Both the position numbers and the translations under genes were made by a program. From NCBI GenBank assembly GCA_024277725.1, contig JAJRUP010000152.1, positions 520-64,519 of the forward strand: DNA of 64,000 nucleotides, read 5' to 3'. This document shows, in pieces, positions 2,940 to 63,734 of this stretch. Within the stretch, counting starts at the first letter, position 1, and each line of letters starts with the position of its first letter. The DNA comes from a bacterium. Its GTDB lineage: Bacteria > CG2-30-53-67. Under the pieces are notes generated by a model. That model worked only from the letters and a program-made list of their open reading frames with translations. It had not been told where the DNA came from and did not search any database.

Positions 2940-3188
2940 CCTCCATCCAGACGCGCTGCACGTATCGTTCGTGAAGCCGGTCTTGCATCCTCATTCTCTA
3001 AATAGTCCCATTCATATAAGGGGGCCTGTCCGCATGCAACGCCCAGACAGGCGCTTGAGTGCCGCAAAACGGCCTCATCATCATCCCGCTCCCTGGCACC
3101 TACCTACCCGGGGGGGCCTTCGTTGCACGCCTTGAGGAGACCGCCCTGCGGCCCTTCCGATGCATCACCGTATTCACGAACAAGGCCA

Positions 3189-3824
3189 CTATGTCCCGAG
3201 GAATTCTTTTTCCACCCATCGGGAGTCCACCCTGTGGACCGATCTTCTTTCCGCACGCAGGATCGAAAGGAGATCCTCCAGTGCCTCCTCAAATTCATCA
3301 TTGATCAAAAGATAATCATACTTCTCAAACTGTGCAATCTCCTCCCGCGCCTGCTTCAGGCGTCTGATAATCTCCTCTTCAGGGTCCGAGGCCCGCCCCC
3401 GCAGCCGTTTCTCCAGTTCGGCGAAGGAGGGCGTCACAACAAAAACAAAGACCGCTTTCAGGTCCTTCCGTGCCATCAGCTTCTGCGCACCTCCGGCATC
3501 AACATCGAGGATCACGTCGGAACCTGCTTCCTGGATCTCCCGGACCACCCTTTTGGAAGTCCCGTAGAAATTCCCATGGACCGGCGCCCATTCCAGGAAC
3601 TCCCCCTTCGCCGCCATGTCTTCAAAGACGGTCGGATCGACAAAAAAGTAATCACGACCATCCACCTCCCCGGAACGGGGGGGACGGGTCGTATAAGAGA
3701 TGGAATGGGTTAACCTCGGAAGTCGCTCAACCGCCGCACGGCAAAGCGAGGTCTTGCCCGCACCGGAAGGAGCAGAGAGAACCACCAGGAGCCCTTCCCT
3801 GCCCACATGCGATTCACTCATCAT
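3189..3824 (-). CDS. gmk: guanylate kinase
   Basis: P-loop GAGKTS and YTTRPPR motif, VDGRDYFFV. Listed ORF starts at TTG (3836); ATG ATG at about 3824/3821 is more likely. Confidence 0.9.
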   Translation of the reverse strand: MMSESHVGREGLLVVLSAPSGAGKTSLCRAAVERLPRLTHSISYTTRPPRSGEVDGRDYFFVDPTVFEDMAAKGEFLEWAPVHGNFYGTSKRVVREIQEAGSDVILDVDAGGAQKLMARKDLKAVFVFVVTPSFAELEKRLRGRASDPEEEIIRRLKQAREEIAQFEKYDYLLINDEFEEALEDLLSILRAERRSVHRVDSRWVEKEFLGT

Positions 3825-5163: not shown

Positions 5164-5243
5164 CCTTGATCCTTGAATACGATTTTGATCTGAAGAATTC
5201 GTTTGCAACTGTTCTATAACGGCACAGTAATAAGTCCCCGCTA

Positions 5244-5346
5244 CAAGGCGCGAAGGTTTTGAGGAGTGAAGCGTACTTTTCCCGTACGCCGCAACGATCT
5301 TAAAACCTGATATACGAAGTAGATGGACTTTTTACGAAGCCGTCAT
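5244..5346 (+). repeat. copy A of a ~103-bp paralogous intergenic element (candidate structured RNA)
   Basis: caaggcgcgaaggttttgaggagtgaagcgtacttttcccgtacgccgcaacgatcttaaaacctgatatacgaagtagatggactttttacgaagccgtcat. About 85% identical to 62681-62783. Stem 5254-5263 pairs with 5299-5308. Confidence 0.5.
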
Positions 5347-5434: not shown

Positions 5435-7159
5435 ATGGATTCTTTCATCATCAAAGCCATCCGGGATGAATGGTGGACGATACTTCCGGCAGCTCGGATT
5501 CAACGGATCACCGAGATCCGTCAAAACGAGTTTCTCTTTATCCTGCGCACTCCCGGGCGGAACCGGAAGGTATTGATTTCCTGCAATCCTTCCCACCCGT
5601 CCCTCCACCTGACGGACGCCGACTTTCAGGCCGTCTCTCCTCCCTCCCCCTTCTGCATGGTGCTGAGAAAACATTTGACCGGCGGCACCCTGCAGGAAAT
5701 CTCTCTGCCCCCCCTGGAGCGGATTCTGACGCTCACCATACACCGGCGAAAGGAATCGGGACGGCTGCAAAAAATACATCTCATCATTGAGATCATGGGC
5801 AGGAGGAGCAACCTGATCCTCGCCGACCCGGACACGGGCAACATCGTCGATTGTGCCCGGCATATCCCCGGGGAACAGAACCGATTCCGTCAACTTCTTC
5901 CGGGACACCCCTACATAGCGCCCCCCCGTCCCGGAAAGATCGACCCCCGACATCTCACCGCAGCCGACATCCCACACAATCTTCAGGAAAGCGGGTCACC
6001 CCATCAATGGGTTGTAGAGCAAATCCGGGGATTCAGCCCCCTTCTCGCAAAAGAAGTCCTTTCCCGCAGCCGACGGAACGGCATCCTCCCCGTCATTGAG
6101 AGACTCATGGATGACTATGATGCGGGACGTTTCGAGCCGGCGATCTACCGTTCCCCCGATGGGTGCAGACGGATCCTGAGCGCATGCCGGCTCGATCACC
6201 TTGCGGATTTTACAAGGATTCCCTGTGACACGATGAATGATGCCGCCGACCGTCATCGGGAGATGTCCCTTACGACGGAAGAAGTCAACCCGGCCCGTTC
6301 ATCCCTCTCCAGGGCCCTCGAAAAAGTGATCGCAAAACAGGAAAGGATCCTGGCGTACATCGAAAAGGACCGCACTGCCTGCAAGGACCTGGACCGGCTG
6401 CGGCAGACGGGGGAATGGATACAGGGAAACCTCTATCGATTAAAAAGAGGCATGACGGAAGCCGAATTAATCGACCCGATGGGAAAGGAGCCCCGTCCGT
6501 TACGGGTCGCCCTCGATCCGCAACTCGCCCCCTATGAAAATGCACAACGCTATTTCCGGCGCTACCGGAAACTTCAAAGGATGCAGGCGGCGACCGAAAA
6601 CCGGTTCAGCAAGATTACCGGGGAACTGGAATATCTCCTGCAGGTCCGGGAAACCGTCCGGCAGGCCGAGACATTAGAGGACCTCCAGGAGATCCGGGAG
6701 GAACTGGCCGCCGGAAAATACCTCCCCCCTTCCCGGCAGAAAAAGAAGAAGAAAAAGAAACAACAGATCCGGCCGCCCCGCTGTTATCTCTCCTCGGCAG
6801 GGCACATCCTCCTGGTCGGCCGGAACAACCACGACAATGATCGCCTGACCACCCGCATTGCACACCGGGAAGACCTCTGGTTTCATGCCCAGGGACTTCC
6901 CGGCGCCCATGTGATCCTGCGCAATCCACAAAGAGATGAGATTTCACCGAAGGTGCTCCATGAAGCGGCGCTCCTCGCCGCCTACTACAGCCGGGGGAAA
7001 GATCACCCCAAGGTCCCCGTGGTCTACACCCTCCGCAAACATGTCAAGAAACCTCCGGGGGCGAAACCGGGAATGGTTCTCATTCATCACGAGAAGACCC
7101 TCCTCGTCGTCCCCCGGAAAGAGGATCTCCCCACCCCCTGCCCGGTAGAGGAATCCTGA
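5435..7159 (+). CDS. rqcH: NFACT-family RNA-binding protein (FbpA/Rqc2 homologue; ribosome quality control RqcH-like)
   Basis: 574 aa. N-terminal NFACT-N (ILRTPGRNRKVLISCNPSHPSLHLT), coiled-coil middle, C-terminal DUF814/NFACT-R (GLPGAHVIL...AAYYS). Contains a KKKKKKKQQ tract. Confidence 0.75.
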   Translation: MDSFIIKAIRDEWWTILPAARIQRITEIRQNEFLFILRTPGRNRKVLISCNPSHPSLHLTDADFQAVSPPSPFCMVLRKHLTGGTLQEISLPPLERILTLTIHRRKESGRLQKIHLIIEIMGRRSNLILADPDTGNIVDCARHIPGEQNRFRQLLPGHPYIAPPRPGKIDPRHLTAADIPHNLQESGSPHQWVVEQIRGFSPLLAKEVLSRSRRNGILPVIERLMDDYDAGRFEPAIYRSPDGCRRILSACRLDHLADFTRIPCDTMNDAADRHREMSLTTEEVNPARSSLSRALEKVIAKQERILAYIEKDRTACKDLDRLRQTGEWIQGNLYRLKRGMTEAELIDPMGKEPRPLRVALDPQLAPYENAQRYFRRYRKLQRMQAATENRFSKITGELEYLLQVRETVRQAETLEDLQEIREELAAGKYLPPSRQKKKKKKKQQIRPPRCYLSSAGHILLVGRNNHDNDRLTTRIAHREDLWFHAQGLPGAHVILRNPQRDEISPKVLHEAALLAAYYSRGKDHPKVPVVYTLRKHVKKPPGAKPGMVLIHHEKTLLVVPRKEDLPTPCPVEES

Positions 7160-22317: not shown

Positions 22318-22593
22318 CTAAGTGGTCCTGTTCGTAAATACTGTGACGCACCGAGAGGGTCGCAGGGCGGTCTCGTCTCCGCGCGCGACGGAGGCGGTAC
22401 GTACCCCTTGTGGTACGGTGCAGGGAGCGCATCCCAAGATACCTTAATGTGTCAGCCGCCGCAGGCGGCATCAATTAAGGTAAAGCGGGAGTCTGGCCCA
22501 GCGAAGGCTTGCCTTCGCTGGGGAAAAGACAACGAAGAAGAGGCCGTCCTGCGGCACTCAAATGCCACCGTATTTACGAATAGGGCCACTAAG
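22318..22593 (+). ncRNA. candidate structured RNA / MITE-like element closed by a 24-nt inverted repeat
   Basis: ctaagtggtcctgttcgtaaatac (22318-22341) pairs with gtatttacgaatagggccactaag (22570-22593) at 21/24. Two of the three mismatches are G-U-compatible only on the plus strand. Interior holds at least four strong GC hairpins (palindrome ggtacgtacc; accttaat...attaaggt; cccagcgaagg-cttg-ccttcgctggg). Confidence 0.4.
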
Positions 22594-27640: not shown

Positions 27641-27704
27641 CAGCTTTCAGCACTCAGCTACGACAGTTCCTCTGCACATCAATTTCCCGCTTTGCTGAAA
27701 GCGA
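27641..27704. repeat. partial copy of the hairpin-module repeat family (shares cggtcagctttcagc...catcaa.tttccc with 55468-55510)
   Basis: gctttcagc (27647) and gctgaaagc (27696) form a 9-bp inverted repeat. The left part matches the R3 element near 55468. Confidence 0.4.
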
Positions 27705-40117: not shown

Positions 40118-40210
40118 GAAAAACCCTCACTTCGTTCGGTTCAAACCGTTCAAACAGTCGAATCGGTTTAAACGGCTTAAACGGTTTAAACTATTTGAAC
40201 CGTCCTTTAT
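40118..40210. repeat. AT-rich nested palindromic element between korB and korC
   Basis: cggttcaaaccgttcaaac...ggtttaaacggcttaaacggtttaaac...tttgaaccg. Outer 9-bp inverted repeat and repeated GTTTAAAC palindromes, inside a GC-rich operon. Confidence 0.5.
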
Positions 40211-48862: not shown

Positions 48863-51040
48863 ATGAAAAAATGGAACATCCTGTTTTCCACCTTCCTCCT
48901 CATCTTCCTGTCCGTCCTTCCAACCTCGATTTTCGCAGAAGATCGTTATGTACCGGGAGAACTCCTGGTACGGTACAAATCGCAGGTCTCCGCATCGGCG
49001 GTGGCCCAATCCCTGAGCGCAAAGGGCGCCGAACAGATCGACGGCTCCCGCCGAAGGAGCCTTCACCATGTCCGTCTTCCCGAAGGAACCACCGTGGAGG
49101 AAGCGCTCCGGGAATTCCGGAACGACCCCGACGTCCTCTATGCCGAACCGAACTATATCGTCCATGCCCTGGGACAGACCTTTCCCAACGAAAAAGACAA
49201 TGCATCCGAAAAATGGGAGCAACAGTGGGGTCTGTACAATACGGGCCTGTCAATCGGGACAGGAAACACCACCGGCACGGCCGGGGCCGATATCAACGCC
49301 CCCGAGGCCTGGGACATTACGACCGGTTCGACCAATACGGTCATCGCCATCCTCGATACGGGGATGGACATGGACCATCCGGAGTTGGTCAACCAGCTCT
49401 GGACCAACAGTGGAGAGACGGCCGGGAATGGCCGGGATGACGACGGGAACGGCTACGTCGATGATCGTCAGGGATGGGACTTCATCAACGACGACAACGA
49501 TCCCGACGATGACAATCTTGGTGCGGGAAGCAACCAGAATAACCACGGGACCCATATCGCCGGGATTATCGGTGCGGAGGGGAACAACAGTACCGGGATC
49601 GCAGGCATCAACTGGGACGTCTCTCTCATGATCCTTAAAGTCCTCGATGCCAATGGAGAAGGCCCGGTCGACAAGATCGTCCTCGCCATCGATTACGCCA
49701 TCGACAAAGGGGCCAAGATCATCAACGCCAGTTGGGGCCTGACCAGCTTCAGCCAATCCCTGTACGATACCGTCAAAGACGCCCGGGACAGCGGTCTTCT
49801 TGTGATTGCCGCGGCAGGAAACACCTCGACCGTCGAATATCCGGCCCGGTACAATCTCGACAATATCATCTCCGTGACCGCAACCGATCTCGATGACAAC
49901 CTGGCTGATTTCGGCACCGGCACCAAGGCCGCCGTCGGTGTCCGGGACGTCGATCTCGCAGCGCCGGGGGAGCTGATCTACAGCACCTTCATCGTCGGAG
50001 ACGCCCCGGCCAACCTCTCGGACAACACAAAGGACTACTACTGGAAGGACGGAACCTCCCAGGCCGCGGCCTTCGTCTCCGGTGTGGCCGGGCTTCTCCT
50101 GGCCGACAACTCGATCTTGACCCCCGACCAGATCAAGGCCCGGATTCTGGGAAGTGTGGAGACGGATTCCATCACCGACACCTCCATCTTGAACTCCACT
50201 GCCAGCGGCGGACGGCTCAATGCGGCGGCGGCCCTAACCAGCCAGATCGTCGTCGTCCCCTACGGTACATCGCTCCTCAAAGGGGAGATCCGCCAGTTCA
50301 CCCTTGACGGCGCCGTCGCCACCGACTGGGCCACCAGCAACCCCAACGTGGGGACCATCGACGCCAACGGCCTCTTCACCGCCGAGGGGACCGGCTCCTG
50401 CACCGTCTTGGCCAACAACGAGACCTATACCTCGGGGACGATCTACGTGGAGGAGATCACCGTCAACGTGGATACCACCTCCCTCGACCCGGACGAGACC
50501 ACAACCATTACCGCCTCCGGCGGAACCGCCCCCTATACCTACACCAGCAGCGACCCGAAGGTCCTGACCGTCGATGCCGCAAGCGGCGTGGCCACCGGCG
50601 TGGACAAGGGGAGCGCCACGGTCACCGCCTCCGACGCCCGGGGCTTCTTCGGGATCTCCGAAAGCATCTCCGTCTCTTCGGCGGGGAGCGGGAAGGTCAC
50701 AGGAAACTGCTTCATCGCGACCGCCGCCTACGGCTCGCAACTGGAACCCCACGTGCGGACCCTGCGGCATTTCCGGGACCGATACCTGCTGACCAATGAC
50801 GCGGGCCGTCTCTTCGTCCGCCTTTACTATCGCTTAAGCCCCCCCCTCGCTGCAACCATCGCCGCACACCCGGCCCTGCGGACGGTCGTTCGCTTTCTCC
50901 TGCTCCCCCTGGTTCTTTTCGGATCCTTGATGGTGAAGACAGGGATCTCCTGGAAGGTCTTTTTCGCGGTACTGTTCGTGATCATCGGAGGGACGGCCAT
51001 GCTGCTGCGGCGCCGATCCGGAACGGTTCAATCACCATGA
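48863..51040 (+). CDS. secreted S8 subtilisin-like serine protease with Ig-like domains and an unusual C-terminal Cys-containing tail
   Basis: Signal peptide, inhibitor-I9-like propeptide. Catalytic D (AILDTGMD), H ([10 protein letters not shown]), S ([13 protein letters not shown]). Two Big_2-like domains. C-terminal tail described in findings. Confidence 0.8.
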
Positions 51041-51106
51041 AGGGCATGAAGAACAGGAAGGAAAACCGGTCATCCCAAAGGCAAGAGTAAAATCAAAAAG
51101 CAGAAC

Positions 51107-51198
51107 CACCGGGGGAACACGGGGAAAAACTTGTTATTCCCTCTCCCCTTGGGGAGAGGGTCAGGGTGAGGGGGGAAGTTGATGCAGCCTGAAAGCTT
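51107..51198 (+). repeat. R1 copy of the hairpin-module repeat (ccctctcccc-ttgg-ggagaggg core)
   Basis: ccaccgggggaacacgggg...ttattccctctccccttggggagagggtcagggtgaggggggaagttgatgcagcctgaaagct. Convergent intergenic between the protease and proS. Confidence 0.55.
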
Positions 51199-51206
51199 CG
51201 GCTTCT

Positions 51207-52913
51207 CTATCCCGAAATCAGGGAGAGGACCTTCGGAACCGCTTCCTCCACGGCAACCCGGGTCATCTCACCGGTCCTGCGCTCCTTGATCTCCACGACC
51301 CCCTCCTTCAGCCCCCGGTCGCCGATCACGATCCGGCAGGGGATGCCGATCAGGTCGGCGTCCTTGAACTTGAAGCCGGGACGTTCGTTCCGGTCGTCGA
51401 GAAGAACATCGATCCCTTTCTCCCTCAAGGCCCCGTAGAATTTCTCCGCCAGGTCAACAACCTCCTTTGACTTGGCGCTGAGGGGAAGGATCAGGGCCGA
51501 AAAGGGAGCGATCGGAACGGGCCAGCAGATTCCGTCGGGGTCGTGATTCTGTTCGATGGCAGCCGCAGCGGTCCGCCCCACACCGATCCCGTAGCACCCC
51601 ATGATCATCGGCCGGCTTTTGCCGTCCTCATCGAGGAAGGTCGCCCCCATCGACTCACTGTACTTCGTCCCGAGCTTGAAGATGTGCCCCACTTCGATTC
51701 CCCGGCTGATCTTCAGCCTTCCGGAACAGCGGGGACAGCCGTCCCCTTCCCGGGCGATCCGGATATCGTCGAAGGCGTCGGGTGTAAAATCACGGTTCAC
51801 CCGGACGTTGACCAGATGAAGATCGGCACGGTTCGCTCCCGTCACCCCCTCCGTGACGGAAAGAATCCCGTGATCTGCGATCACCGGCACACCGGTCAGG
51901 CCCACGGGACCGGAGAAACCGGAGGGACCGCCCGTGACCTTCTGCACCGTCTCCTCGTCGGCCAGGGTGATCGTCTCCCAGCCGAGACGGTTCTTGAGCT
52001 TGATCTCGTTCAATTCGTGATCCCCCCGGACCAGCCCCACCGCGGCGTGGCCCTCCCCGTCCATCACGATGAGGGTCTTGATCAGTTTTTCCGGCCCGAC
52101 ATTCAAAAAGGCGGAAACCTCCTCCACACTCTTTTTGCCCGGCGTCCGAACCTCCTCGAGCGTGCCCGCTTTCCCGGAAGCGGCGGCAGGCTCCTTGCGG
52201 ATCCCGGCCCGCTCCGTATTGGCGGCATAGCTGCAGGAATCGCAACAGGCCACGGCATCCTCACCGGTTTCGGCCATGACCATGAACTCATGGGAAAAGT
52301 TTCCGCCGATGGTCCCCGTATCGGCCTCAACGGCCCGGAATTCCAGGCCGCACCGCTCGAAGATCCGGCAGTAAGCATCAAACATCTTCCGGTAGCTTTC
52401 ATCGACCCCCGCCTCGTCCCGGTCGAAACTGTAGGCATCCTTCATGATGAACTCCCGCCCCCGCATCAGGCCGAAACGGGGCCGGATCTCATCGCGGAAC
52501 TTCGTCTGGATCTGGTAGAGATTGAGGGGAAGTTCCCGGTAGGAACGGACGTTCATCCGCACCAGGTCGGTAACCACCTCCTCGTGGGTCGGGCCGATGC
52601 AGAACTCCGTATCCTTCCGGTCGCGGACCCGGAGGAGTTCCCGGCCGTAGTGGTCCCAACGACCGCTCTCCTTCCAGAGCGAGGCCGGCTGCACCGCCGG
52701 CATCAGAACCTCCTGGGCACCGGCCCGGTTCATCTCCTCCCGGATGATCTGCTCCACCTTCCGGATCACCCGGTAACCGAGCGGAAGGTAGGTATAGATG
52801 CCCGCCGCCAGTTTCCGGATCATCCCGGCCCGCATCATCAACTTGTGGCTCACCACCTCGGCCTCGGCCGGGTCCTCTTTCAACGTCGGAATGAGTAACT
52901 GCGAATAGCGCAT
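51207..52913 (-). CDS. proS: proline--tRNA ligase
   Basis: Class-II aaRS motifs with an editing-domain insertion. Start at [13 protein letters not shown]. Confidence 0.9.
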
Positions 52914-52999
52914 GAAAACGCCCCTTCTGTTGAATCGCAAAAAAATGACCTGAACGATCCGATATTCTTAACAGATGAAGGCGGGAATTTCAACCGGAA

Positions 53000-53656
53000 T
53001 CAGCTCAACCGTGCAAAACCGTACCAGATGCGGACCATTTGCCACAGGGTCAGCGGCTTCGTGACCACCTCCGTCCGGCCGGCGCGGACCGCCTGCACGA
53101 TGGAAGAAATCGACCTTTCGGCATCAACGATCGTCGATGTCCTGTCAAACTGACGAAGCATGTGGGTATCGGAGGAACCAACCAGGGGGATGCCGTAGTC
53201 TCGGCAGATTCGTTCCGCCTTTCGGTTGTAATTGACCAGGCGGTGATAGAAATGGGAGAACTCGACGGCGTCGAAAAGCGTCCTGTTCTGCATGAATCGT
53301 CCGTTGAGACAGGTGGTCTTGGGAAAGAAGGGATGAGGAGCGATGATGAGCAGATGTTCATCCTTCGCCTCCCGGAGGTCCCGGAAATCCCGGATCGACT
53401 GATGTTCCGCTCTTGCATTAATCAGAAGGACATGCTTGCCTTCCACAAGGAGTTCGATCCCCGGGATCAGGAGGATCCCCCGCTCCCCGGCATAGTCCCG
53501 CAACTCCTCACTGAAGGTTACCACCCCGTGGTTGGTAATGGAGAGGACATCATACCCCTTGTGACAGGCAAGATCAATGATCTCCCGGTCCGAATAGGAG
53601 ATCCGGTCGTAAAGGTCGGAACCGGTATGGAGATGAAAATCACACTTGAGTTTCAC
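53000..53656 (-). CDS. PHP-domain metal-dependent phosphoesterase
   Basis: CDFHLHTGSDLYD..ITNHG..APHPF..GSSDTH polymerase/histidinol-phosphatase fold motifs. Confidence 0.75.
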   Translation of the reverse strand: MKLKCDFHLHTGSDLYDRISYSDREIIDLACHKGYDVLSITNHGVVTFSEELRDYAGERGILLIPGIELLVEGKHVLLINARAEHQSIRDFRDLREAKDEHLLIIAPHPFFPKTTCLNGRFMQNRTLFDAVEFSHFYHRLVNYNRKAERICRDYGIPLVGSSDTHMLRQFDRTSTIVDAERSISSIVQAVRAGRTEVVTKPLTLWQMVRIWYGFARLS

Positions 53657-53833
53657 AGGTCACCTCAACGATTATCATAGCATATTTTTCCCATTGCCGG
53701 AGGGGAAACCTCCCGCGGAAAGACGACCGGAGGCGACCTTCTGCGGCACGGTGGCCGGAAAAAGGCCCTTGTAAAAAATCACAGAGGAGGAGTTTCAACG
53801 GGGGGAGAACATGACAGGGAAATTCCAATTCGG

Positions 53834-54337
53834 CTATGCCGGGGAACCGGGGAAGACGGTGACGATCCGGTCCCCCACGTGAACATCGAATTCGGAGCAG
53901 AGCAGCACCAGTTCTGCATCCTCCAGGGGCATGTTGATCTCCAGGGCGATCGGTTTTTTCCCGGCATCCACCCGGTACCGGTAGAGGTCCTTTGCCTCCA
54001 ACAGACGTTCCGAGATCGAAAGCGGGGTCAGGTCGAAGATCCGCAACCGGTCCCGCTCCACCCGGTTCCGGTAGTAGATCTGCACGACATCCCGGAAAAC
54101 AAGCCGGTGGGGAAGATAGGGATTGACCGTCCCGGAATTGATCCGCAACCAATCCTGACACCGCAGATCGACACGAACTTCTTCGCCGTGAAGATCCAGA
54201 TCAACCGTCTCCACATCCGCCTGGTGGAAGGAGAAATCCTGCCGAAAGGTTTCGGAATCGATCCGACCTCCCGCAATGTCGTCTGCAACTTTTTTCAGAT
54301 ATTCCCGGATCTGGTCGTCCGAATAATTTTCCGTCAT
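53834..54337 (-). CDS. hypothetical protein (about 167 aa)
   Basis: No recognised motif. GTG/ATG starts at 54343/54337. Preceded on its strand by repeat copy R2. Confidence 0.45.
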   Translation of the reverse strand: MTENYSDDQIREYLKKVADDIAGGRIDSETFRQDFSFHQADVETVDLDLHGEEVRVDLRCQDWLRINSGTVNPYLPHRLVFRDVVQIYYRNRVERDRLRIFDLTPLSISERLLEAKDLYRYRVDAGKKPIALEINMPLEDAELVLLCSEFDVHVGDRIVTVFPGSPA

Positions 54338-54416
54338 TGACACCTTCTCCTTGATTCTAATTCTCCCGGTCGAAAGACGAAAGGCCGTCCCAGGTAAACC
54401 GGGACACTACTCATAA

Positions 54417-54490
54417 AGCTTTCAGCTCTTACGCCCCCTCATCCCAACCTTCTCCCCCAAGGGGAGAAGGAGAAATAACAGGTTTGGTTT
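54417..54490 (-). repeat. R2 copy (inverted orientation) of the hairpin-module repeat
   Basis: Reverse complement reads caaacctgttatttctccttctccccttgggggagaaggttgggatgagggggcgtaagagctgaaagct, collinear with R1. Confidence 0.55.
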
Positions 54491-54508
54491 TATCCTGTAG
54501 ACCCTGTC

Positions 54509-54760
54509 TGAAAGGTTTTGCCTTTCTCTGCGGCCTCCGCGTCTCTGCGGTGAATGCCTTTCGCCTTTGACTTTGGTTTTGACTTTCTCCGTGTCCTCCG
54601 TGGTCTCCGTGGTCAAAGCTTTTGGCCTTTGATTTTGACTTCTGTCTTTTCCCCCGTGACTCCCCGTGTTCCCCGTGGTGAATGCTTTTCGCCTTTGACT
54701 TGTTTTGTTTTCTCTGCGTACTTCGCGGCTCTGCGGTGAATGCCTTTCGCCTTCCATCTC
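54509..54760. repeat. degenerate ~60-bp tandem repeats (4-5 units) with direct TTTGAYTT repeats at ~11-12-bp spacing
   Basis: Units of the form cYcYgYggtgaatgcYtttcgcctttgactt(g)gttttgacttYctc. Not CRISPR-like: no unique spacers and the repeats are degenerate. Confidence 0.6.
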
Positions 54761-54761
54761 T

Positions 54762-55409
54762 TTAATCCAGCCCCACACGATCGCAGTAATCGTAGATCCG
54801 GCACTCCCCGCACTTCGGACCGATGGGACGGCAAAGGTTCTGGCCGTAGGTGACGAGCAAATCATTGATGACCTTCCAGTGTTTCTTCGGGAGTTTTTCC
54901 CGAAGGGCAAATTCCGTCTTCTCGGGCGTGGCGGTCTCCACATACCCCCACCGGTTCGTGATCCGGTGAACATGGGTGTCGACACAGATCCCGTATTTGT
55001 CATAGCCGATGGTCACCACGAGGTTGGCCGTCTTCCGTCCGACGCCGGGGAGGGTGAGGAGTTCCTCAATCGTATCGGGCACCCGGGAGTCAAAATCCGC
55101 CATCAATCTCCGGGAGATTTCCCGGACATTTTTCGCCTTGACGCGGTAGAAACCGACGGGATAGATCAATTTCTCGATTTTCCTGACCGGAAGCTTTGCC
55201 AGGGTCTCGGGCGCTCTTGCCACGGCAAAAAGACGTTTCGACGCCGCAGCGGTCGTGCCGTCCTGTGTCCGCAGAGAGAGGACGCAGGAGATCAGGATCT
55301 GGAAAGGATCCCGCGTCTTCTCGGCCACGACCCCCACAATGGGGACCTTCCACTGCTTCACTTCCTTCTTCAGGATCCGGACAACTGCGTCGATCTGTCG
55401 GTCATCCAT
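54762..55409 (-). CDS. nth: endonuclease III
   Basis: HhH-GPD (LLTLPGVGRKTANLV), catalytic K/D, [4Fe-4S] CxxxxxxCxxCxxxxxC at the C-terminus. Confidence 0.9.
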   Translation of the reverse strand: MDDRQIDAVVRILKKEVKQWKVPIVGVVAEKTRDPFQILISCVLSLRTQDGTTAAASKRLFAVARAPETLAKLPVRKIEKLIYPVGFYRVKAKNVREISRRLMADFDSRVPDTIEELLTLPGVGRKTANLVVTIGYDKYGICVDTHVHRITNRWGYVETATPEKTEFALREKLPKKHWKVINDLLVTYGQNLCRPIGPKCGECRIYDYCDRVGLD

Positions 55410-55480
55410 TGTATTCTCGAGCGTCCATCATAATCGGTTAAGCGTGATGCGCACTGCACTGAGCGATCAGCAGTCAACGG

Positions 55481-55585
55481 TCAGCTTTCAGCCTTCATCA
55501 ACTTTCCCCCTCACCCTGGCCCTCTCCCCAAAGGGAGAGGGGAGGATAAGGTTCCCCTGTGACACCCCGTGTTCCCCGTGGTTGA
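55481..55585 (-). repeat. R3 copy (inverted orientation) of the hairpin-module repeat
   Basis: Reverse complement reads cacggggaacacggggtgtcacaggggaaccttatcctcccctctccctttggggagagggccagggtgagggggaaagttgatgaaggctgaaagct, near-identical in layout to R1. Confidence 0.55.
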
Positions 55586-55690
55586 TTGCTTTTGCCTTTG
55601 TTTTTCTCTGCGTCTCTGCGGTGAAAGCTTTTCAGCTTTGTTTTTTATTCTTTGTTTTTGCTTTTTCATCTTTCATATTTTTCCCGATCT
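55565..55690. repeat. second block of the degenerate tandem repeats, overlapping the ispG 3' end
   Basis: ccccgtggttgattgcttttgcctttg / ctctgcggtgaaagcttttcagctttg and T-rich continuation. Encodes the Lys-rich ispG tail on the opposite strand. Confidence 0.5.
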
Positions 55691-62613: not shown

Positions 62614-62680
62614 GAAATCCTTTCCCTAAATGCATAGTATAAAGTCTGATTTCATACGGCAAGGTAAAAAGCTCCGGATG

Positions 62681-62783
62681 CAAGGCGCGAAGATTTTGTG
62701 GAGTGAGGCGTACTTTTTTGTACATCGCAACGAACACAAAATCTGATAAACGCAGCAGACGGACTTTTTACGCAGCCGCCATA
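62681..62783 (+). repeat. copy B of the ~103-bp paralogous intergenic element
   Basis: caaggcgcgaagattttgtggagtgaggcgtacttttttgtacatcgcaacgaacacaaaatctgataaacgcagcagacggactttttacgcagccgccat. Stem 62691-62700 pairs with 62735-62744. Compensatory changes relative to copy A. Confidence 0.5.
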
Positions 62784-62801
62784 GAAATATTGCAGGACTC
62801 G

Positions 62802-63734
62802 TTATTCACCCTGGAGCTGGGCCTGTATTTCCGCGGCAAAATTTTCCTGCTTCTTTTCGATTCCCTCCCCCAGTTCGTAACGGACGAAGCGGCGGATCTC
62901 GAATCCCTCGCCGATCTTCGCCTGACTCTCTTTCACGAGATCGAAGATCTTTACGTCGGTATCCTTGACGAAGGGCTGCTCAAGCAGGCAAATCTCCCCG
63001 AAATATTTTTCGATACGCCCCTGGACGATCTTCTCGATAATCTTTTCCGGTTTACCCGACTCCAGGGCCTGTTCCCGGTAGACGGTCTTTTCCCGTTCCA
63101 GAACATCGGCCGCAACATCATCACGGGTCAGATAAAGGGGGCGGGCCGCTGCAATGTGCATGGTCAGGTCCTTGAGCCGTTCCTGAAATTCTTCTTTTTC
63201 CGCCATCTCCGCCGACGGACAGGCCACCTCCAGCAGGACCCCGATCTTGCCCCCCATATGGATATAGGAGGCCACCTTTACATCCTCTCCGGAATAGCGG
63301 GTAAAACGACGAATGGTCATGTTCTCCCCGATCGTCGCGATCCGGTCTTTCAGGTTTTCATCCACGCTCCGACCGTCATCCATTTTCTCCGCCGAAAGGG
63401 TCGTAAGATCCGCCGGAGCCGCATTGAGGATCACCTGGGCCACCTGGTTACAGAAGCTCTGAAACTCCTGGTTCTTCGCCACAAAATCAGTCTCTGAGTT
63501 GACTTCCAGGAGGCAACCGGTAGAGCCGTCGTCCGTTAAAGCCGCCACCACCAAGCCTTCCGAAGCAACGCGGCCGGCCTTCTTGGCCGCAGCGGAGAGC
63601 CCCTTTTTCCGCAGAAAATCGATGGCCGCCTCCAGATCTCCACCCGTTTCCGCCAGGGCCTTCTTGCAATCCATGATGCCGGCCCCGGTCCGTGTGCGCA
63701 ACTCTTTTACCTGTACTGCTGATATCCCACTCAT
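62802..63734 (-). CDS. tsf: translation elongation factor Ts
   Basis: VKELRTRTGAGIMDCKKAL N-terminal UBA-like motif. rpsB-tsf-pyrH-frr order. Confidence 0.9.
   Translation of the reverse strand: MSGISAVQVKELRTRTGAGIMDCKKALAETGGDLEAAIDFLRKKGLSAAAKKAGRVASEGLVVAALTDDGSTGCLLEVNSETDFVAKNQEFQSFCNQVAQVILNAAPADLTTLSAEKMDDGRSVDENLKDRIATIGENMTIRRFTRYSGEDVKVASYIHMGGKIGVLLEVACPSAEMAEKEEFQERLKDLTMHIAAARPLYLTRDDVAADVLEREKTVYREQALESGKPEKIIEKIVQGRIEKYFGEICLLEQPFVKDTDVKIFDLVKESQAKIGEGFEIRRFVRYELGEGIEKKQENFAAEIQAQLQGE

Follow-up and report, generated by a model that had tools for sequence, protein, structure and literature searches.

Repeat modules in the spacers of a conserved gene string

The 64,000-nucleotide stretch of bacterial DNA analysed here, which we call the window (lineage CG2-30-53-67, assembly GCA_024277725.1, contig JAJRUP010000152.1, positions 520 to 64,519), carries a string of conserved genes whose spacers are occupied by a family of composite repeats. 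A plus-strand subtilase gene, ending at 51040, converges there with a minus-strand string made up of proS, a PHP-domain gene, a gene for a 169-amino-acid protein (hyp169), nth and ispG. The spacers measure 222 nucleotides (nt) between ispG and nth, 424 nt between nth and hyp169, and 166 nt between proS and the subtilase gene. An earlier interpretation, made from the letters of the window and its open reading frames (ORFs) and referred to here as the sequence-only reading, had named ispG and nth, and both assignments hold; the neighbours that it left unnamed are the hyp169, PHP-domain and proS genes. It was also right in proposing a composite repeat family. Its three collinear modules of about 90 bp, at 51107-51198 (plus strand), 54417-54490 (minus strand) and 55481-55585 (minus strand), were recovered by alignment and by repeat search. 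The best pair in the whole-window repeat search, 51127-51197 and 55483-55553, is 86% complementary across 71 nt, and the 23-mer GGGGAGAGGGNCAGGGTGAGGGG occurs twice in the window against 0.00 occurrences expected.

The hairpin core of these modules can be identified by its sequence as a motif of Escherichia coli that was described as BoxC in the 1990s, later redescribed as the PIT element, a potential intrastrand triplex, and then as TMECO (Holder et al. 2015, PMC4666352, which cites Bergler 1992 and Hoyne/Maher 2000). Its consensus, CCCTCNCCC-N3-6-GGGNGAGGG-N3-GGGNGAGGG, is matched exactly at 51139-51172 (plus strand) and 55508-55541 (minus strand), with 0.00 matches expected in shuffled sequence. 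The motif is built from a first block rich in C, a G-rich block that is its Watson-Crick partner, and a further block, also G-rich, that mirrors the second. The copy between nth and hyp169 (copy 2) falls outside the literal consensus and retains the three blocks with coordinated changes: C-to-T in the first block is matched by G-to-A in both G-rich blocks, so that the third block stays the mirror image of the second. GGGAGAGGG and GGGTGAGGG, like GGGGAGAAGG and GGATGAGGGG, are mirror repeats with one A-to-T change, an arrangement that permits G·G-C, A·A-T and T·A-T triads. All three triplex copies are intergenic. In each composite the G-rich strand is the sense strand of the upstream gene, and the composite begins at that gene's stop codon or a few nucleotides from it. 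The sense strands are 59-64% purine, and the whole composite between nth and hyp169 (63%) ranks close to the 99th percentile when compared with 400-nt windows.

Beside both inverted modules, the sequence-only reading had seen degenerate tandem units of about 60 nt, which direct-repeat families and unit alignment confirmed. A unit, 58-66 nt long, has an A-rich linker (AAAGGCGAAAGGC) followed by the head ATTCACC and then by a triplet of 9-mers with the pattern CRCRGRGNN. Minus-strand units stand head to tail upstream of their modules, in module orientation; in the repeat search and unit alignment those on the nth side span 54521-54753. Within an array they are 61-91% identical and differ in the flavour of their 9-mers, and Tandem Repeats Finder reported 9-nt periods at 54586-54614 and 54652-54677. 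Read on the plus strand, unit 3 (54586-54614) is TCTCCGTGT CCTCCGTGG TCTCCGTGG, and the remaining units have the related flavours CTCTGCG and CCCCGTG. The association had been described for the two inverted modules only; the plus-strand module is also preceded by units, decayed ones of the flavour CATGAAG in the unit alignment, so all three modules abut units (Table 1). Each array keeps a single orientation, and no inverted partner of its units was found in the window. The first unit on the ispG side overlaps the ispG stop codon (55632-55634), and the subtilase TGA (51038-51040) falls inside the first decayed unit.

Downstream of the core, the ispG and subtilase modules run on with AAGTTGATGMAGSCTGAAAGCT. 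The heptamers of copy 3 read ATGAAGG CTGAAAG CTGACCG TTGACTG CTGATCG CTCAGTG, and the nth composite closes with a single CTGAAAG and a small hairpin, not with a heptamer run. The composites are mosaics of a BoxC triplex motif and 9-mer units, both of them known kinds of multicopy intergenic DNA, with a CTGANNG heptamer run closing those at ispG and the subtilase gene.

Table 1. Repeat features and associated genes of the window, in window coordinates
Feature	Position	Strand	Sequence or remark
Decayed units after the subtilase gene	51033-51130	+	CACC and ATGAAGGGC ATGAAGAAC AGGAAGGAA (51033-51063), A-rich linker, GGGGGAAC ACGGGGAAA
Triplex motif, copy 1	51139-51173	+	CCCTCTCCC-CTTG-GGGAGAGGG-TCA-GGGTGAGGG-G
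3' flank of copy 1, lineage-specific	51175-51197	+	AAGTTGATGCAGCCTGAAAGCT, start of a heptamer-type segment; common to copy 3 and relative L121
hyp169, gene for a 169-aa protein	53834-54343	-	Downstream of nth
Whole nth-hyp169 composite	54352-54756	-	About 405 nt inserted between nth and hyp169
3' flank of copy 2	54387-54435	-	CGTAAGAGCTGAAAGCT, then the small hairpin GTCCCGGTTTACCTGGGAC
Triplex motif, copy 2, covarying variant	54436-54471	-	CCTTCTCCCC-TTG-GGGGAGAAGG-TT(G)-GGATGAGGGG
Unit block on the nth side	54509-54756	-	Four clear units and a decayed fifth; flavours CGCAGAG, CACGGGG, CACGGAG, CGCAGAG
3' flank of copy 3	55457-55506	-	AAAGTTG and six heptamers, consensus CTGANNG; kept in L121
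Triplex motif, copy 3	55508-55541	-	CCCTCTCCC-TTTG-GGGAGAGGG-CCA-GGGTGAGGG
Two units on the ispG side	55541-55650	-	TTTCACC GCAGAGACG CAGAGAAAA, then CAAAGGCAAAAGCAATCAACC ACGGGGAAC ACGGGGTGT CACAGGGG
Lys-rich tail of ispG	55635-55685	-	Last ~16 codons, A-rich, linker-like sequence
Heptamers, not a module copy	27643-27702		Three minus-strand CTGANNG heptamers and a 10-bp inverted repeat, GCTTTCAGCA/TGCTGAAAGC

A recurrent composite and covariation of its three blocks

The composite was turned into a search pattern consisting of a hairpin stem, 12-42 nt and two CYCYGYG strings spaced by nine. This pattern has one match in the window (0 expected), none in viral contigs, and at least 120 in metagenome contigs, where the matching stretches represent at least 117 distinct loci. 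Many of these composites resemble those of the window, with a head, two to four 9-mers, a short spacer and the triplex motif. Among the matches listed, the third block lies on the same side as in the window in 71 loci and on the opposite side in 27. As findings that would speak against it, the sequence-only reading had named a ubiquitous module scattered without association to tandem arrays, or a tandem block absent from all relatives. These are half borne out. The core is indeed ubiquitous, and the relatives L121/L122, L372 and L373, described below, lack the nth block, but the link between core and 9-mers is real and recurrent across the metagenome loci.

Since the pattern leaves the far half of the stem and the third block free, it allows covariation to be assessed. 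Among the matches listed, CCC is paired with GGG in the stems of 83 loci and CCT with AGG in 13. The third block carries G in 60 of 62 loci with GGG stems and A in all five (5/5) with AGG stems (Fisher p = 2e-6, a value that is indicative only, the sequences not being phylogenetically independent). Such covariation is what a three-stranded or mirror-repeat constraint would predict, and a plain hairpin would not account for it. In seven loci (L257, L315, L346, L367, L272, L342 and L355) the second loop is enlarged by a small GC hairpin, for example TGGCGCGAAGCGCC, and the third block is kept beyond it, which suggests a constraint on the third block.

Repeats differ between close relatives at the same locus

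Relatives carrying this locus were reached by an ispG homology search. They are L121 and L122, whose ispG is 98% identical to that of the window, L124 (88%), L372 (79%) and L373 (77%). L121 and L122 share the gene order of the window, with 283 nt between ispG and nth, 166 nt between proS and the subtilase gene, and 16 nt between nth and hyp169, as against 424 nt in the window. The proS-subtilase spacer of L121 carries triplex copy 1 as the window does. The ispG-nth spacer of L121/L122 holds two units of other flavours, (AAAGTC)4 and a triplex variant of the copy-2 type; in L121 the triplex core at ispG is swapped for this variant, with flanks identical to those of the window on both sides.

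The more distant relatives depart further from the window. In L124 the ispG-nth spacer is 148 nt long, and ispG is directly followed by a copy-2-type motif with the GTCCCGGTTTACCCGGGAC flank, which in the window stands between nth and hyp169; the module with its flank therefore occupies different spacers in different strains. A different, single-unit composite follows nth in L124, and synteny is broken after that gene. L372 has 322 nt between ispG and nth, and overlapping nth and hyp169 genes; its ispG site bears three CGCAGAG-flavour units that are oriented the other way round, and lacks a triplex motif. In L373 the order ispG-nth-hyp169-PHP-proS/subtilase is the same, the spacers are 36, 19, 12 and 7 nt long, and none of the repeat elements is present, triplex copy 1 included.

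On this comparison, the ancestral state is a tight operon into whose spacers the repeats were later inserted. The 3' end of ispG is a recurrent landing or expansion site, and within the time over which strains diverge, modules are acquired, deleted, inverted and exchanged. The raised intergenic variability is a qualitative observation, consisting of a core swap, unit changes and a 405-nt indel.

The copies had been taken to flank a core-gene segment, as possible remnants of the ends of an integrated element or a possible family of regulatory cassettes. Since the repeat-free relative L373 keeps the gene order, what lies between the copies is not cargo but ordinary syntenic genes, into whose spacers the repeats were inserted; an integrated element is rejected on this synteny. 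The cassette interpretation fares no better, because the nth block is present or absent among strains with 98% identical ispG and the L372 units are inverted at the same site, both of which argue against a conserved cis-regulatory role.

The repeats also reach the end of a reading frame. The Pfam GcpE domain stops at residue 349 of the 365 residues of the ispG product. In relatives, the tail after the conserved ...ALMEEI(G/R)K reads KDKNRDKGA, KKIKPEKY, TDDGRRTTDD or others; the comparison of ispG 3' ends that the sequence-only reading had called for thus shows a lineage-specific tail, which differs even among close relatives. AAAAACAAAG occurs four times in the window against 0.13 expected, and three of these occurrences are local, two in the ispG tail and one in the linker of the adjacent unit. 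The proposal that a repeat block had been absorbed into the ispG frame is in part confirmed: the tail is repeat-like, A-rich and holds two AAAAACAAAG copies, and with the variability of tails among relatives these copies make repeat uptake a reasonable explanation. At 3140-3225 of L372, the ispG ORF (79% identity) reads through GACGAC(G/A) repeats and yields a 387-aa protein with the tail TDDGRRTTDDRQRR. Several other relatives have similar ispG tails, and repeat-encoded variable C-termini are common in the clade.

Distribution in other genomes

The core and the 9-mer units are both widespread. Of 5426 complete E. coli genomes, 5409 contain matches to a 51-nt query taken from copy 1, at 83,094 places in all, with a median of 17 per genome and about 93% identity over about 40 nt. 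Chromosomes hold 83,035 of these places and plasmids 59, and no annotated feature lies beneath any of the eight listed best matches. In IMG/VR contigs the core has more than 120 matches, in plainly unrelated genomic backgrounds. A scan of viral contigs with the 17-mer CCACGGGGAACACGGGG gave seven matches, several of them in Gly-rich, GGN-periodic repeats that are apparently coding, and the unit architecture is absent from all seven.

From the 9-mer units, the 20-mer TTCACCGCAGAGNCGCAGAG (window positions 55612-55631) was found in at least 120 stretches from well over a dozen named lineages, in a scan of one genome per species. These lineages include Chloroflexota, Acidobacteriota, Planctomycetota, Bacteroidota, Verrucomicrobiota, Chlamydiae, Armatimonadota, Gemmatimonadota, Nitrospinota, Thermodesulfobacteriota, Burkholderiales and a Heliomicrobium, among others. 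The 20-mer is usually one arm of a perfectly complementary hairpin of 50-265 nt (loci L132-L251, for example L244, L230 and L163), and the other 9-mer flavours CGCCAAGNN, CACGGAGNN and CATGAAGNN stand beside it in some loci. Among the matches listed, 81 of 135 9-mer instances combine a 9-mer run with its exact reverse complement within 250 nt, forming a long hairpin, two of 135 have a direct partner, and none of the 135 has a triplex motif within 300 nt. Because inverted pairing is usual elsewhere, the head-to-tail stacking of the window is unusual for the 9-mer family. A lineage-specific 22-mer had no match in the metagenome scan, although the Joint Genome Institute contigs L121 and L124 contain it; the collection scanned evidently does not include their samples.

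In other genomes, 9-mer elements start a median of 26-30 nt past a same-strand stop codon; for the 20-mer the median is 26 nt in the cases whose nearest upstream gene is on its strand. Upstream neighbours are on the same strand or not in 56 versus 38 and 29 versus 25 cases, counts that are indicative only, the neighbour analysis being crude (simple longest-ORF calls, with 28 and 49 cases 'inside' probably spurious ORFs). A general rule that the element follows a same-strand gene was considered and rejected: it is true of the three window copies and fails on L372 and on these splits.

Other features of the window

A partial fourth copy of the module had been placed at 27641-27704. This segment does not align with the module and shares with it only the palindrome GCTGAAAGC and three CTGANNG heptamers, which are antisense to the neighbouring genes. 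The hyp169 gene is kept in all relatives examined, at 167-172 aa and always between nth and the PHP-domain gene; its product matches no Pfam or NCBIfam family, and an exact protein look-up of hyp169 and ispG in the contig index returned no match. At about 12400-12800 of L124 there are stop-interrupted frames (…RVRHYSRR…YCHWVK…) that we take to resemble the N-terminal part of an integron-type tyrosine recombinase. The end of synteny in L124, beside its nth composite, may be a rearrangement breakpoint.

No Rfam family reaches its gathering score anywhere in the window. In a permissive scan the whalefall-1 RNA scored 18.9 and 15.7 bits against a threshold of 37 and was rejected. The sequence-only reading was correct in excluding a CRISPR array: repeat searches revealed no layout of identical repeats and unique spacers, and the sole CRISPR-DR match in Rfam, CRISPR-DR57, scored 18.7 bits against a gathering score of 39.

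The window holds further repeats. An intergenic direct repeat of about 128 nt, at 5219-5346 and 62656-62782, is 81-82% identical between its copies, each just upstream of a plus-strand ORF (5435..7159 and 62703..63497). The repeat includes an imperfect hairpin of some length, GGTTTTGAGGAGTGAAGCGTAC ... GTACGCCGCAACGATCTTAAAACC, has no Rfam match at E<=1, and could be a shared leader or a small RNA. At 22318-22593, 276 nt are bounded by 28-nt inverted repeats with 86% complementarity, and a partial, inverted second copy lies 19 kb away at 3050-3190 (arms of 75 and 33 nt at 79-82%). This looks like a small element of the miniature inverted-repeat transposable element (MITE) kind, unrelated to the modules. 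At 40137-40191 the 9-nt unit CGGTTTAAA is repeated in tandem in about six copies with a 76% match.

Relation to described repeat families

The likeness to BoxC/PIT/TMECO extends from the two exact matches to the 37-nt consensus to the intergenic position, the multicopy state and the mirroring of the second block by the third. TMECO has 3610 occurrences in 262 proteobacterial genomes, forms a stable triplex in vitro (CD/NMR, for the E. coli sequence), and is statistically tied to intergenic rearrangements between E. coli strains (PMC4666352); the strain-to-strain intergenic change at the window locus matches this published link. The window differs in its host, an uncultured deltaproteobacterium-like lineage, and in having one copy that is a coordinated variant outside the strict consensus. 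Its motif is moreover set in a larger conserved module, preceded by 9-mer units and followed by a heptamer run, that is undescribed for E. coli. The G-quadruplex-hairpin-duplex switch motifs HPG1 and HPG2 of E. coli (Kaplan et al. 2016, PMC5100583) belong to the same sequence family, with four G-tracts, 3-nt loops and a C-rich 5' flank, and are strictly intergenic, often between convergent or tandem genes. The E. coli motifs often lie close together in inverted pairs, whereas those of the window are single and joined to tandem units.

For the units, the closest parallels are multicopy intergenic classes of Geobacter metallireducens, for which binding of a global regulator or of IHF/HU was hypothesised without tests (Aklujkar et al. 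2009, PMC2700814). They lie at the 3' or 5' ends of genes, some of them within operons, and IS110-family elements (ISGme8) are annotated next to several class 1 sites (PMC2700814). A class 2 site has TCTCCGTS[Y] three times in tandem, and most such sites are paired on opposite strands, at distances that vary (PMC2700814). Unit 3 of the window, on the plus strand, agrees with this consensus, the comparison being one of consensus sequences; the Geobacter pairs are inverted, whereas the window has head-to-tail arrays fused to a class-4-like motif. Class 3, five tandem heptamers containing CTGA (PMC2700814), recalls the heptamer run of the window, with the consensus MTYCTGA there and CTGANNG here.

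Repetitive extragenic palindromic (REP) sequences, bacterial interspersed mosaic elements and REPINs, as seen in Enterobacteria and Pseudomonas, are likewise mosaics of structured modules in spacers, after stop codons and within operons, and vary between strains; the long hairpins formed by 9-mer elements of other phyla add a likeness to REPINs. The window repeats differ from REPs in having no sequence similarity to them and no GTAG-type head, in sharing sequences across phyla, and in units that are direct, not inverted. No REP-associated tyrosine transposase (RAYT) was identified among the neighbouring genes, and no transposase among the adjacent genes examined.

The sequence-only reading had compared the layout with iterons or response-regulator binding arrays in preference to REP or BOX elements, on the strength of TTTGAYTT repeats said to recur 11-12 bp apart on one face of the helix. 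The sites start at 54566, 54578, 54628, 54634 and 54694, with spacings of 12, 50, 6 and 60, so that a single pair is 12 bp apart; they recur because the unit of about 60 nt, which is the true period, recurs. With phasing absent, a BoxC motif as core and mixed 9-mer flavours, this preference is not upheld. The likeness to iterons and response-regulator arrays lies solely in direct repeats near a GC-rich hairpin. The window array differs from them in its irregular spacing, its heterogeneous repeats, its place in a chromosomal housekeeping operon and its polymorphism between near-identical strains. Neither a rep gene nor a regulator gene lies nearby, and the surroundings also lack DnaA boxes and an AT-rich unwinding region. 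This candidate was rejected on the spacings and on its neighbours ispG, nth, proS and the subtilase gene.

Origin of the composites

The composites are, in our judgement, reasonably likely to be structure-prone repeats that act at the DNA level and expand, contract and are exchanged by slippage, template switching and recombination between copies, much as has been proposed for TMECO in E. coli, with their local effects as by-products. The modules were inserted into the spacers of a compact, conserved gene string and are still being exchanged within them. In support stand the purine bias, the missing terminal inverted repeats and target duplication, the lack of terminator-like T-runs and promoter-like sites in the composites, and the lack of an Rfam family. 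Mirror and inverted repeats with a purine/pyrimidine asymmetry such as theirs would leave the B-form when single-stranded, and the resulting non-B structure would favour slippage, template switching and recombination between copies. Units could then expand or contract, triplex cores could be swapped like cassettes, and whole composites could appear or vanish. The visible outcome would be the hypervariable spacers and the altered gene 3' ends, such as the Lys-rich tail of ispG and the subtilase stop codon inside a unit. In this account the identity of the parts, their recurrent fusion, their polymorphism, their distribution and the covariation are observed; how the modules spread, and that no regulatory function is dedicated to them, we infer.

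Several observations weigh against this explanation. In E. coli, an in vivo dimethyl sulphate footprint indicated no stable triplex (PMC4666352). The insertion at 54352-54756 has no terminal inverted repeats and no clear target duplication, and with no transposase either, calling the repeats recombinogenic is a deduction from their polymorphism. In the crude neighbour analysis, gene ends beside 9-mer elements are 3' rather than 5' ends in 111 versus 71 and 61 versus 40 cases. The identity of the 20-mer across distant lineages is hard to reconcile with neutral slippage alone and hints at an active process still to be named or at selective constraint. The data covered the 64-kb window of this genome and about 70 kb from relatives.

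That 3' bias would also fit an unlikely alternative, in which the elements work in RNA, in 3' untranslated regions or between cistrons, in the manner of E. coli REP sequences. Transcribed together with the upstream gene, the hairpin, or else an RNA G-quadruplex formed by GGGG-AGA-GGG-TCA-GGG-TGA-GGGG, would block 3'-5' exonucleases or attenuate read-through, and in this way tune how strongly ispG, nth and the genes downstream are expressed relative to one another. Such a role would fit the sense orientation of the G-rich strand and the start at or near the upstream stop codon in all window composites, the median distance of 26-30 nt past a stop codon elsewhere, the 60% of 9-mer elements, among the matches listed, that form long hairpins with an inverted partner, and the position of E. 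coli HPG1 motifs nearer to 3' ends (PMC5100583). The hairpin of copy 1 is present in its predicted fold, and the predicted RNA folds contain a strand-specific hairpin, lengthened by G-U pairs that are possible on the G-rich strand alone. The fold z-scores are nevertheless unremarkable in two of the three copies (-0.94, -2.89 and -1.41). A terminator scan did not pick up the hairpins, no T-run follows them and no promoter-like sites were found in the composites; PIT elements, similarly, acted neither as promoters nor as terminators when assayed in E. coli (cited in PMC4666352). Nor is orientation conserved, as seen in the antisense units of L372, the same-strand splits of upstream neighbours given above and the antisense heptamers at 27643. 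That strains with 98% identical ispG may have or lack an element also speaks against its being needed. Since purine-motif triplexes do not form in RNA (PMC4666352), the covarying third block would be left unexplained by a simple hairpin.

Movement in trans of non-autonomous MITE- or REPIN-like elements, for instance by a RAYT or IS200-type Y1 enzyme or an IS110-type recombinase with the hairpin as its recognition target, would account for the clean presence/absence difference of about 405 nt between strains, for the same module and flank in different spacers of different strains, for the REPIN-like long, perfect hairpins in other phyla, and for a phylogenetic spread that suggests horizontal movement. 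We consider it distinctly improbable. The insertion lacks the terminal inverted repeats of a MITE, which is ruled out at 54352-54756 on these grounds, and its junctions, AAAGAG/ATGGAAGG and ATCAAG/GAGAAGG, share a weak resemblance of 8-10 nt that is unconvincing as a target duplication. REPs are normally lineage-specific, unlike the identical strings found here across distant lineages. TMECO is not tied to mobile elements in E. coli, where plasmids hold the small share of places reported above, and the adjacent genes examined include no transposase. Still less probable is an array for a nucleoid-associated or global regulatory protein, in which 9-mer triplets would seat a multimer and stacked units would form a nucleoprotein complex. 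It could draw on the 9-nt direct triplets with conserved CRCRGRG in several units, on the annotation of the same architecture as putative global-regulator sites in G. metallireducens (PMC2700814), and on the IS110-family elements beside class 1 sites, by which at least one protein system recognises the neighbourhood. A 9-nt period without helical phasing would put successive sites on different faces of the helix, however, and one array mixes 9-mer flavours. Lineages far apart, with no specific regulator in common, carry an identical 20-mer, the arrays vary between near-identical strains and invert between relatives, no replication or regulator gene is adjacent, and the hypothesis in the literature was never tested.

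A bolder idea, which we rate as a long shot, is that 9-mer units and triplex motif together form one cross-phylum, self-propagating non-coding element, its modules copied or exchanged as cassettes by a widely distributed enzyme system still to be named, or else kept in vivo by selection on a three-stranded DNA structure. It arises because groups as remote from each other as Chlamydiae, Chloroflexota, Bacteroidota and Planctomycetota have one identical 20-mer, because the hairpin arms are perfectly complementary, and because the three blocks covary mirror-symmetrically, with the third block kept across mini-hairpins.

Implications

Neither the core, a known motif, nor the unit type, which the Geobacter work had catalogued, is new. 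The stacking of units fused to a triplex motif, the metagenome breadth of the composite, the core swap, the mirror-preserving covariation and the 20-mer identity across distant lineages may be new; no published description of these five features was found. For the cross-lineage 20-mer hairpins the searchable literature yielded no description, and a literature search with the 9-mer strings returned unrelated primers only.

For this locus, the identification of the repeats removes a tempting but wrong reading as iterons, regulator arrays or the ends of an integrated element. The repeats explain three local oddities: why a housekeeping operon has such long spacers, why ispG ends in a Lys-rich tail, and why the subtilase gene stops within a repeat. 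They also bear on annotation, since spurious ORFs arise from them and protein C-termini become variable, examples being FTAETQR, NHGEHG and TDDGRR. More broadly, BoxC-type motifs and 9-mer repeats are abundant in bacteria and still without demonstrated function or mode of spread, a problem on which the recurrent fusion of the two (at least 117 loci), the cassette-like core exchange, the mirror covariation and the shared 20-mer provide handles. Should they prove to be a self-propagating element, these natural variants would make the 30-year-old question of the purpose of BoxC directly testable.

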